This document shows positions 16,386 through 17,534 of a DNA stretch of 64,000 nucleotides, piece after piece; positions within the stretch are counted from its first letter, which is position 1; each line of letters opens with the position of its first letter. Under the pieces are notes generated by a model that saw only the letters and a program-made list of their open reading frames with translations, ran no database searches and was not told the DNA's origin. Origin of the DNA: Ostreococcus lucimarinus (Eukaryota); NCBI GenBank assembly GCA_000092065.1, contig CP000595.1. One strand, given 5' to 3'. The position numbers were made by a program, and so were the translations under genes.

Positions 16386-17534
16386 TCACCGTTTGCGTTT
16401 CTTGTGCTCGTCGTGCGAAAGCTTGAGCGCGGCGCAAATTGTGACGTACGCGCCCTCCGGGATATCGCGGGCGATTTCGTCCAGCGCCGACATCGCGTCG
16501 TCGAGCTTTGATTCTTCCGCGTCTTTCAGCGTGAGCATGTACGTCAGGCACGCGGTAAAGTGCAATCTACGCGCGGCGTCGATGCACTGGTCTTTGTCCC
16601 AAGGACACCCGTGCTCGTGCGCGTACTTCAAACACTCCAACTGTCCATCATAGGCGGCATCACGGCACGTATCCTCGTTCCAAGGACACCCGCGCTCGTG
16701 CGCGTACTTCAAACACTCCAAGCTTCCACTCCCGGCGGCACGTGCGCACGTCTCCTCGTGCCAAGGACACCCGTTCTCGTGCGCGTACTTCAAACACTCC
16801 AAATGTCCATTCAAGGCGGCAAATGAGCACGTCCTCTCGTTCCAAGGACATCCGTGCTCGCGCGCGTACTTCAAACACTCCAAATGTCCATTCGAGGCGG
16901 CAACCGCGCACGTTTTCTCGTCCCAAGGACACCCGCGCTCGTGCAAGTACTTCAAACACTCCAACTGTCCTTTCCAGGCGGCAGAGATGCACGTCTCTTC
17001 GTCCCAATCACACCCTTGCTCGTGCGCGTACTTCAAACACTCCAACTGTCCATTCGAAGCGGCATTATTGCACGTCCTCAGGTTCCAATCGCATCCGTGC
17101 TCGCGCGCGTACTTCAAACACTCCAACTGTCCATGCGAAGCGGCAGCGTTGCACGTCCCTTTGTCCCAAGGACACCCGTGCTCGTGCGCGTACTTCAAAC
17201 ACTCCAAATGTCCACTATAGGCGGCACATGCGCACGTATCCTCGTGCCAAGGACACCCGTTCTCGTGCGCGTACTTCAAACACTCCAAATGTCCATTCGA
17301 GGCGGCAGACTTGCACGTCCAAGCGTTCCAACGACACCCGCGCTCGCGCAAGTACTTTAAACATTCCAAATGTCCAGTCGAAGCGGCTTCCGCGCAGTCC
17401 GGCGCCGTGAACGCGAGCGCGAGCAAGCGCATATAACTTTCATGTCCATTCAAAGCGGCTTCCGCGATGTGCGACGCCGCGAACGCGCGCTCGCGCAAGC
17501 GCGCCAACGCGGTCGCCTCCTCGCTCGACGCCAT
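16386..17534 (-). CDS. Ankyrin-repeat protein built from ~10 near-identical 33-aa repeats
   Basis: Internal ATG (MASSEEATALARL...) at residue 134 maps to 17534; everything upstream is R-rich antisense. The unit NGHLECLKYAHENGCPW(D/N)E(E/D)TC..AA is iterated 10 times, consistent with ankyrin repeats of the GHLE.LKY..E.GCPWDE.TC type. Confidence 0.75.
   Translation of the reverse strand: MASSEEATALARLRERAFAASHIAEAALNGHESYMRLLALAFTAPDCAEAASTGHLECLKYLRERGCRWNAWTCKSAASNGHLECLKYAHENGCPWHEDTCACAAYSGHLECLKYAHEHGCPWDKGTCNAAASHGQLECLKYAREHGCDWNLRTCNNAASNGQLECLKYAHEQGCDWDEETCISAAWKGQLECLKYLHERGCPWDEKTCAVAASNGHLECLKYAREHGCPWNERTCSFAALNGHLECLKYAHENGCPWHEETCARAAGSGSLECLKYAHERGCPWNEDTCRDAAYDGQLECLKYAHEHGCPWDKDQCIDAARRLHFTACLTYMLTLKDAEESKLDDAMSALDEIARDIPEGAYVTICAALKLSHDEHKKRKR
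16470..17460. repeat. Tandem array of about ten 99-bp units, in-frame inside the ankyrin CDS
   Basis: Seen directly: ...ccaaggacacccg(t/c)gctcgtgcgcgtacttcaaacactccaa(a/c)tgtcca... recurs every 99 nt. The periodicity also shows up as repeated peptides in the other frames of the track (16560..16826, 16742..17410, 16854..17360). Confidence 0.85.

Follow-up and report, generated by a model that had tools for sequence, protein, structure and literature searches.

A polymorphic array of 27-residue ankyrin-type repeats gained in one Ostreococcus lineage

Why should one gene of a compact algal genome differ strongly between strains whose surrounding DNA is nearly identical, and what might its product do? 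The question is raised by an ankyrin-type repeat gene on the minus strand, positions 16386-17534, of a 64-kb stretch of Ostreococcus lucimarinus DNA (contig CP000595.1); we call the whole stretch the window and use its coordinates throughout. Picoalgae of the class Mamiellophyceae make do with tiny, streamlined genomes, and large DNA viruses, through their interaction with these algae, are a major force in their ecology. An earlier prediction had described the gene as a recently expanded array of near-identical 99-bp ankyrin units. Here we report that the repeat is of a different length and age, that the gene is a lineage-specific gain, and that its repeat domain forms a sharply bounded island of variation among natural alleles. 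We consider it probable, though well short of secure, that the gene encodes a polymorphic protein-recognition module that owes its diversity to unequal exchange and gene conversion, with diversifying selection probably at work.

The predicted interval coincides exactly with a minus-strand coding sequence that runs from a stop codon at 16386 to an ATG at 17534. The gene and its parts are as follows.

16386-17534, minus strand: complete coding sequence of an ankyrin-type protein, 382 aa plus stop, with the ATG at 17532-17534 (open reading frame (ORF), Pfam and AlphaFold2 (AF2))
17400-17534, minus strand: N-terminal 45 codons, a short helix and a degenerate extra N-terminal capping (N-cap) unit, in the window allele class only
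16590-17399, minus strand: ten 81-bp units, T-C-x-x-A-A-x-x-G-h-L-E-C-L-K-Y-a-h-E-x-G-C-P-W-x-x-x (Tandem Repeats Finder (TRF), identity matrix, AF2)
16509-16589, minus strand: C-terminal capping unit (C-cap), codons 316-342, variable among alleles
16386-16508, minus strand: invariant C-terminal tail, codons 343-382 ending KKRKR, plus stop (allele comparison)
16515-17522, no strand: island hypervariable against conspecific genomes (contig comparison)

The tandem array itself is real. TRF placed it at 16599-17387/17396 with scores of 902-1062 (the row of period 81 has 9.8 copies, 81% matches and a score of 902), and no other tandem repeat in the window has a TRF score of at least 200. The expected number of about ten units also holds, with ten in register from unit 1 (17319-17399) to unit 10 (16590-16670). 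The period and the near-identity do not. Instead of 99 bp coding for 33 residues, the unit is 81 bp coding for 27: the self-match within the array is 0.81 at a lag of 81 and 0.21 at a lag of 99, and the distance from one LECLKY to the next is 27 residues in all nine spacings of the window. Nor are the units near-identical with sparse substitutions, their mean pairwise DNA identity being 0.796 for units 1-10 (range 0.67-0.93) and 0.818 for units 2-10 alone; one pair of 45 reaches at least 0.9, 18 of 45 fall below 0.8, and the mean amino acid identity is 0.68. The original prediction had named a missing 99-bp periodicity, or units under 80% identical, as grounds for its own rejection: the periodicity is indeed missing, and the identity lies on the borderline. 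A 243-bp super-period, reported by a TRF row for the same array, was discarded as a higher-order unit, since identity by lag is flat (0.80 at lags of one to three units).

The array is not a recent expansion either. Synonymous divergence at framework positions between units of the window allele is 0.115, as against about 0.002 between strains in the flanking DNA; at roughly 50 times the divergence of the flanks, the units must be old, and much older than the strains that carry them.

That the gene is of ankyrin type was correctly predicted, with Pfam matches at 1e-32 for Ank_4 and 2e-26 for Ank_2 and fold matches to ankyrin arrays. The bit scores (gathering cut-offs in brackets) are 111.6 (22.7) for Ank_4, 92.9 (27.3) for Ank_2, 91.6 (27) for Ank_5, 55.3 (21.1) for Ank and 44.5 (22.3) for Ank_3. 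Like canonical 33-residue ankyrins and the designed ankyrin repeat proteins (DARPins), the units keep the core motif G-H-L-E-x-(V/L)-K-x-L-x-E-x-G. Unlike them, and outside the repeat length of about 33 residues of the superfamily, all spacings are 27 aa (81 bp), the finger is short by about six residues per unit, each unit holds three invariant cysteines, and the TPLH motif at the start of helix 1 is replaced by T-C-x-x, in which both x are hypervariable. A sequence search of the PDB matched only 33-residue consensus ankyrins and DARPins, HMMER opening a gap of about six residues per unit in the hairpin loop.

A single-sequence AF2 model was mediocre (mean predicted local distance difference test (pLDDT) 68) and was replaced by one made with a 45-sequence alignment (A1), which reached a pLDDT of 91.5, about 98 across the array, and a predicted template modelling (TM) score of 0.81. 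The modelled unit is helix(9)-turn(3)-helix(9)-loop(6) and has no strands by DSSP, so that the beta-hairpin 'finger' of ankyrins is absent from it, while the helix pairs of successive units stack in the predicted model as a curved solenoid with a Foldseek probability of 1.00 to ankyrin arrays. Among PDB entries the model superposes on AnkB, ankyrin-1 and Espin1-AR (TM 0.58/0.67, root-mean-square deviation 3.8 A); among predicted viral structures it matches ankyrin proteins of Pandoravirus, Cedratvirus, Pithovirus and Bodo saltans virus (BsV), with E-values down to 7e-28 and 40-48% identity. Taken together, the Pfam scores, the hairpin gap in every unit, the strand-free model and the Foldseek matches identify the protein, by prediction and sequence comparison, as an ankyrin-type helix-turn-helix solenoid from which the six-residue beta-hairpin finger has been deleted. 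None of the PDB sequence and Foldseek matches is a solved structure with a 27-residue period. The invariant cysteines stand at unit columns 2, 13 and 22 (34 Cys in 382 aa), which are nearly invariant in alignment A1 as well, and histidine is frequent at columns 10, 18 and 20; the three cysteines per unit may be small core residues, or may form a cysteine ladder or metal site that offsets the lost hairpin.

How variable is the gene in nature? The protein of the left-hand neighbour, SF3A3, is identical in conspecific metagenome contigs and was therefore used as an anchor for the locus; a protein identical to that of the window occurs in hundreds of marine metagenome assemblies. Contigs were picked by this identical SF3A3 or by an exact 44-nt tag from the tail of the ankyrin gene, and more than 20 of them (designated L with a number below) gave the locus. 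Over about 3.5 kb on each side the window differs from L001, L003 and L004 by 0-8, mostly 0-1, mismatches per 200 bp, whereas the island differs from the full-length alleles L001 and L003 by 26-40 mismatches per 200 bp plus insertions and deletions, the adjoining 200-bp bins having one mismatch each. Flank divergence from these two alleles amounts to 0.18-0.26% over 11.6 and 9.0 kb, against 13-20% plus insertions and deletions in the ankyrin domain. The island comprises that domain with both caps; the last 40 codons and the intergenic DNA on the 3' and 5' sides are invariant, codons 343-382 showing zero differences across 12 alleles. The only other raised spots in the 8-kb comparison, at 14300-14500 (GC-rich) and 20100-20400, have 2-8 mismatches per 200 bp.

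Copy number is polymorphic between strains, as had been expected. Alleles with an open reading frame carry from 6 to 16 units, with flanks that are about 99.8% identical where long: L013 has 6 units, L001, L003 and L038 have 8 (L014 is partial), L037 has 9, the window 10 and L039 16. Unit spacing is always 27 aa, and this variation in whole units points to unequal exchange. Versions with one or two units (L004, L010 and P0139) are probably collapsed assemblies, and L002 and L011 carry frameshifts. The anticipated failure of short-read assemblies is also seen, in that contigs end within the array or shrink to one or two units; most short-read contigs of the window allele class end about 85 codons into it. 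The 8-, 9- and 16-unit alleles lack the FAASHIAEAALNGHESYMRLLALA of the window's N-terminus. A 61-nt direct repeat there (17370-17430 and 17442-17502, 84% identical and 72 nt apart) indicates that the extra N-cap unit arose by tandem duplication. Eight independent metagenome contigs, which come from different projects, have the same N-terminus, and over 657 nt L048 and the window agree save for one tract; the duplicated N-cap is therefore real.

Four further contigs join the array to other ankyrin N-termini (MSEVQARLRAALVAI..., MERASAARARERLRRAF...): L009 (3966-5300), L012 (3966-4778), L035 (1357-2631) and L045 (2224-3068). Their upstream DNA is absent from the window, and one such product (L035/P0026) stands for 88 member sequences. 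These joins are either chimeras of paralogues made by the assembler or real structural variants. Long ORFs in other frames cross the array on both strands (within 16560-17410: 16742-17410 plus, 222 aa; 16854-17360 plus; 16660-17007 minus). They are by-products of a stop-free repeat unit, a property that also keeps the frameshifted stretch of L002 open.

The variation is confined to a few positions of the unit. The 90 sampled units include 56 distinct ones, of which none differs from another by synonymous changes alone. Shannon entropy is 3.1 bits at columns 3 and 4, 2.5 at column 27, 2.4 at column 7, 2.0 at column 26, 1.6 at column 25, 1.5 at column 8, 1.3 at column 10 and about 1 at columns 17, 18 and 20, and it is near 0 in the core. 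The framework codons TGC, GGA, TGT, AAG, TAC and TGG are each found in 56 of the 56 distinct units. Within the window's array the proportion of nonsynonymous differences (pN) is 0 in the framework, where that of synonymous differences (pS) is the 0.115 given above; in the variable columns pN is 0.41 and pS 0.26. Between the three closely related 8-unit alleles there are 4-7 codon differences, every one of them nonsynonymous and in a variable column. In the C-cap, where positional orthology is unambiguous, comparison of the window with L001 over 27 codons shows 12 nonsynonymous changes and no synonymous one, and cap positions 7-11 form the allelic series LAYGN / RAYGN / RAYAH / RRLHF.

By DSSP of the predicted model, columns 3, 4 and 7 lie on the inner helix, 8-10 in the turn, and 25-27 in the loop and at the start of the next inner helix. 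Columns 7, 8, 20 and 27 align with ankyrin/DARPin positions 13, 14, 26 and 33, which are randomised or binding positions in the Binz/Pluckthun design of DARPins and, in ankyrin complexes, line or border the binding groove. The variable columns are also the 'x' positions of the family-wide consensus. Since the variable face corresponds to the ligand-binding groove of canonical ankyrins, we infer that the protein is most likely a protein-binding recognition module. In arrays of transcription activator-like (TAL) effectors a near-constant DNA-level scaffold likewise carries a few hypervariable residues per unit and units recombine; those units are 33-35 aa long, vary at two loop residues and bind DNA. 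The present protein differs in its acidity (pI 5.8), its roughly 7-10 variable positions per unit and its ankyrin fold. A nucleic-acid-binding code repeat of the TAL effector or pentatricopeptide repeat (PPR) kind was considered and rejected, the fold matches to PPR proteins having a TM score of only about 0.25 and the protein being acidic.

Exchange between units has left visible traces. The original prediction had proposed ongoing concerted evolution, and the process is supported by conversion tracts and duplicated blocks; homogenisation is not its outcome. Over the 657 nt that it shares with the window, L048 has two changed codons, both in unit 3 (TAT to GGG and CAT to AGC; 6 nt in all), and the resulting 12-nt tract is identical to window unit 9. 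In unit 5, L003 and L014 read Y-D-G-H, whereas L001 has there the E-N-G-Q of its own unit 3. Non-adjacent units are 0.988 identical in L037 and in L039, which indicates recent block duplications. The locus thus shows the whole-unit copy-number change and the traceable conversion and duplication of a coding variable number tandem repeat (VNTR) or minisatellite, and lacks the near-identical units; exchange here has left the scaffold constant and has reshuffled and diversified the face. At the edges of the island divergence drops sharply, as would be expected either of very frequent recombination around an old balanced polymorphism or of a locally high rate of conversion, possibly from paralogues. 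A diversity-generating retroelement, considered because the variable codons are AAT-rich, was rejected: the changes are not A-specific and include C/T, G/T and whole-codon swaps traced to other units. No reverse transcriptase family of Pfam was recorded for the genes called within 10 kb on either side.

Where did the gene come from? The window has 62.8% GC and densely packed intronless ORFs, and the following features define the setting of the ankyrin gene.

14921-16288, plus strand: SF3A3 (splicing factor 3A subunit 3), left neighbour (Pfam SF3A3, SDE2_2C, SF3a60_Prp9_C)
16289-17604, no strand: segment absent from other Ostreococcus lineages, the ankyrin gene insertion (synteny, tblastn)
17605-19890, plus strand: LONRF-like RING/U-box protein with a LON substrate-binding domain, right neighbour, divergently transcribed

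The block HEAT/pseudouridine synthase/SF3A3/LONRF-like/HAD/TatD is kept in three other Ostreococcus lineages, whose SF3A3 proteins are 75, 76 and 69% identical to that of the window; the SF3A3 cluster whose representative is 75% identical includes Ostreococcus tauri proteins, and Micromonas pusilla is more distant. In these lineages the gap between SF3A3 and the LONRF-like gene is 36 nt (L041, of the O. tauri cluster), 268 nt (L042/L043) and 98 nt (L044); no ankyrin gene lies at the junction, and tblastn with the ankyrin protein found no match in these contigs. Its absence from the conserved junction in three lineages makes the gene a lineage-specific gain. A closer sister lineage (L034 and L010) carries it. 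The host-like composition noted earlier is borne out, the third-codon-position GC content (GC3) being 0.72 for the gene and 0.68 for the array, compared with 0.75 +/- 0.07 for 40 ORFs of the window; a foreign origin read from composition was discarded on these grounds. No terminal repeats or target-site duplications flank the gene, the flanks showing only short, GC-rich chance repeats, and a mobile-element signature was set aside for that reason.

The 27-residue unit is not peculiar to this gene: many protists and giant viruses have it, and the database proteins that match it, more than 5000 in number, include some of BsV, Coccomyxa, Cymbomonas, Tetraselmis, diatoms and Balamuthia. Among the top 120 homologues the prevailing spacing is 27 (357 spacings), followed by 54 (69), and at 16 giant-virus loci 63 of 86 spacings are 27. 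The predicted abundance of this repeat flavour in giant viruses is in line with the homologue search, the viral loci and the Foldseek matches alike. The gene has the 27-aa period and the T-C-x-x-A-A-x-x-G-H-L-x-x-L-x-Y/W-A-x-E-x-G-C-P-W framework of giant-virus-type ankyrins; it sits among syntenic cellular genes with host-like GC3, and not in a viral genome or viral island. Literature searches on the 27-residue ankyrin type and on the GCPW motif found no description of it as a distinct repeat type, and searches on ankyrin polymorphism in Ostreococcus or Micromonas found nothing relevant.

In the explanation that we favour, the gene would have been gained in one Ostreococcus lineage between SF3A3 and the LONRF-like E3-ligase gene. 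The outer helix and core (L-E-C-L-K-Y-a-h-E, G-C-P-W) would serve as a constant scaffold, and the residues of inner helix, turn and loop (columns 3, 4, 7, 8, 10 and 25-27) as a variable face. In natural populations in-register unequal exchange would add and remove 81-bp units and short-tract conversion would act between them, so shuffling an old pool of unit variants; the ORF and scaffold would be kept and the binding face would diversify, with a fast-evolving partner as the probable source of diversifying or balancing selection. The short N-terminal helix, variable solenoid, invariant helical tail of about 40 residues (KKRKR) and pI of 5.8 suggest a soluble protein-binding adaptor whose tail anchors or signals; KKRKR at its end might have a role like that of a nuclear localization signal. 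By way of speculation, its partner might be a protein of a virus, might be a factor in mating or self-recognition, or might be a substrate passed on to the neighbouring E3 ligase. A role in conflict is an attractive conjecture by analogy with the expansion of BsV ankyrins and the role of viruses in Ostreococcus hypervariability, both taken up below. A bolder version has the gene as a recently acquired receptor, hypervariable in the population, in effect a DARPin-like library made by nature, whose hairpin-less 27-residue scaffold also occurs in giant viruses, serving in a viral arms race or in self/non-self recognition (mating) and possibly feeding targets to the LONRF-type ligase; as a whole we find it unlikely.

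Several points weigh against this explanation. Metagenome assemblies, the source of the alleles, are unreliable in repeats, and L002, L004, L009-L012, L035 and L045 are collapsed, frameshifted or chimeric. The variable columns are placed at the groove by sequence alignment and by DSSP of a predicted model, and the ratios of nonsynonymous to synonymous divergence take no account of recombination and approach saturation (1.2) in the hypervariable columns. Conversion that copies old differences between units can, moreover, yield a nonsynonymous excess without present-day positive selection. This last point also speaks for a neutral coding minisatellite, in which the array would merely be recombinationally unstable and any in-frame tolerant scaffold would look alike; length changes that are always multiples of 81 bp and visible conversion tracts are what it would leave, and in-frame repeat-number polymorphisms are used as neutral markers in Bathycoccus (PMC11539686) and in Wolbachia ANK genes (PMC3287509). 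It is hard to square, however, with variation that returns to the same few columns, with framework codons that are invariant even at synonymous sites, with the 12 nonsynonymous and 0 synonymous changes and stepwise allelic series of a cap that is not repeated, with a reading frame that is open in every allele spanning both flanks (frameshift contigs that reflect assembly or read errors apart), or with a divergence between allele classes some 50-100 times that of the flanks. The C-cap result and the invariant synonymous sites of the framework argue that selection probably has a part, and we give the neutral account little credence.

A stronger challenge concerns the source of the diversity. No window unit is copied exactly in another allele class (best 0.84-0.94), so that shuffling of the sampled pool alone fails to explain the window allele. 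The main source could instead be ectopic conversion from paralogous 27-residue ankyrin genes, over exchange within the array and point mutation. Besides the lack of an exact source for the window's units, the replacement of four to five whole C-cap codons with unchanged synonymous sites next to them favours such import, as do L009, L012, L035/P0026 and L045, which join the 3' half of the locus to other ankyrin N-termini and upstream DNA and imply paralogues sharing identical stretches of more than 100 nt. Yet these chimeric contigs may be assembly artefacts, both traceable tracts have donors within the same array, and no donor was identified in a search confined to the window's part of the genome; import as the main source is possible and in our view doubtful. 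Misassembly as the origin of the allelic diversity at large, perhaps even of the window, is hardly credible. Collapsed, frameshifted and chimeric versions do occur and most short-read contigs end about 85 codons in, but the 8-unit architecture was recovered independently in L001, L003, L014 and L038, L036 and L037 from different samples agree over seven units, the window-class N-terminus stands in eight contigs, with L048 identical over 657 nt save for one tract, and the differences include cap codons that are not repeated. Descent from a giant virus, the gene having been transferred and kept as, for example, a decoy or antiviral binder, is distinctly improbable. It would account for a gene that the conserved syntenic junction lacks in sister lineages and whose best named relatives in fold and sequence, Pandoravirus, Cedratvirus, Pithovirus and BsV, share the 27-aa framework. 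Against it stand the host-like GC3 and GC and the lack of flanking viral genes, terminal repeats or target-site duplication; phylogenies of repeat proteins are unreliable, and the flavour is widespread in cellular eukaryotes (Coccomyxa, Cymbomonas, Tetraselmis, diatoms and Balamuthia), which makes an intragenomic paralogue as good a source as a virus.

The gene belongs to two known kinds of sequence: it is an ankyrin of the 27-residue giant-virus type and, as the Wolbachia ANK genes are, a coding VNTR. BsV protein P0003 has the same 27-residue unit, T-C-x-x-A-A-x-N-G-H-L-E-C-L-K-Y-A-H-E-N-G-C-P-W, at 66% identity, and the 148-copy ankyrin family of that virus has been read as the product of an arms-race 'genomic accordion' (PMC5871332). 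Unlike the viral genes, which are paralogous copies at genome ends, the present one is a single gene with host-like codon usage in a conserved cellular syntenic block, and its diversity is allelic at one locus. Wolbachia ANK genes also differ in repeat number among close genomes: number and arrangement vary among close strains through tandem expansion and contraction and serve as VNTR-like strain markers (PMC3287509). Those are bacterial 33-residue repeats, and the text consulted reports no comparably sharp island of codon-invariant scaffold and hypervariable face. Within the Mamiellophyceae, Bathycoccus prasinos shows intraspecific, multi-allelic length variation of coding repeats (zinc-finger repeats and a flavodoxin-like repeat protein), used as size markers only; for these insertion/deletion markers neither an ankyrin gene nor an analysis of position-specific hypervariability is reported (PMC11539686).

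Three properties of the locus go beyond the original prediction: it was gained in one lineage, its hypervariable island has sharp bounds, and its diversification is position-specific, with conversion tracts that can be seen directly. Hypervariability in the Mamiellophyceae has so far been tied to outlier chromosomes, and viruses have been given a role in that of Ostreococcus (PMC5498103). Here, unlike on the outlier chromosomes, it concerns one gene on DNA of ordinary composition, whose predicted recognition face is 50-100 times more variable than its surroundings. The locus is a candidate determinant of host recognition or defence that can be sized by PCR, and a high-resolution strain marker, in a class of 27-residue arrays that short-read assemblies systematically break or collapse.

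Some smaller observations concern the gene products and the neighbours. The C-terminal tail has no family match in Pfam or NCBIfam; among 5.8 billion proteins it matches six clusters only, all of unnamed metagenome proteins from this locus. An exact look-up of the 382-aa and 515-aa products in the protein collection gave no match. Some close matches to the 27-residue unit bear the labels of an aphid (Semiaphis heraclei), a Candidatus Aenigmarchaeota metagenome-assembled genome or 'ribosomal protein S8', which are probably contamination or misannotation in public records. L034 (4000-5376; ENA ERZ10646569 contig_25708, 214 kb) is an error-prone long-read contig of about 95% identity with roughly 13 units, in which the MASS start is replaced by AASS, a change seen also in L010, with a possible alternative ATG about 20 codons upstream. 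In the LONRF-like protein the Pfam families LON_substr_bdg and zf-Nse score above their cut-offs and zf-RING_UBOX and U-box just below. Its longest ORF (807 aa) begins at 17467, which would give it a 68-nt overlap with the start of the ankyrin gene on the other strand; judging by aligned orthologues, the likely start is instead the MVE at 17605, which leaves the two divergent genes a shared 5' region of about 70 bp with a GC content of 0.77.

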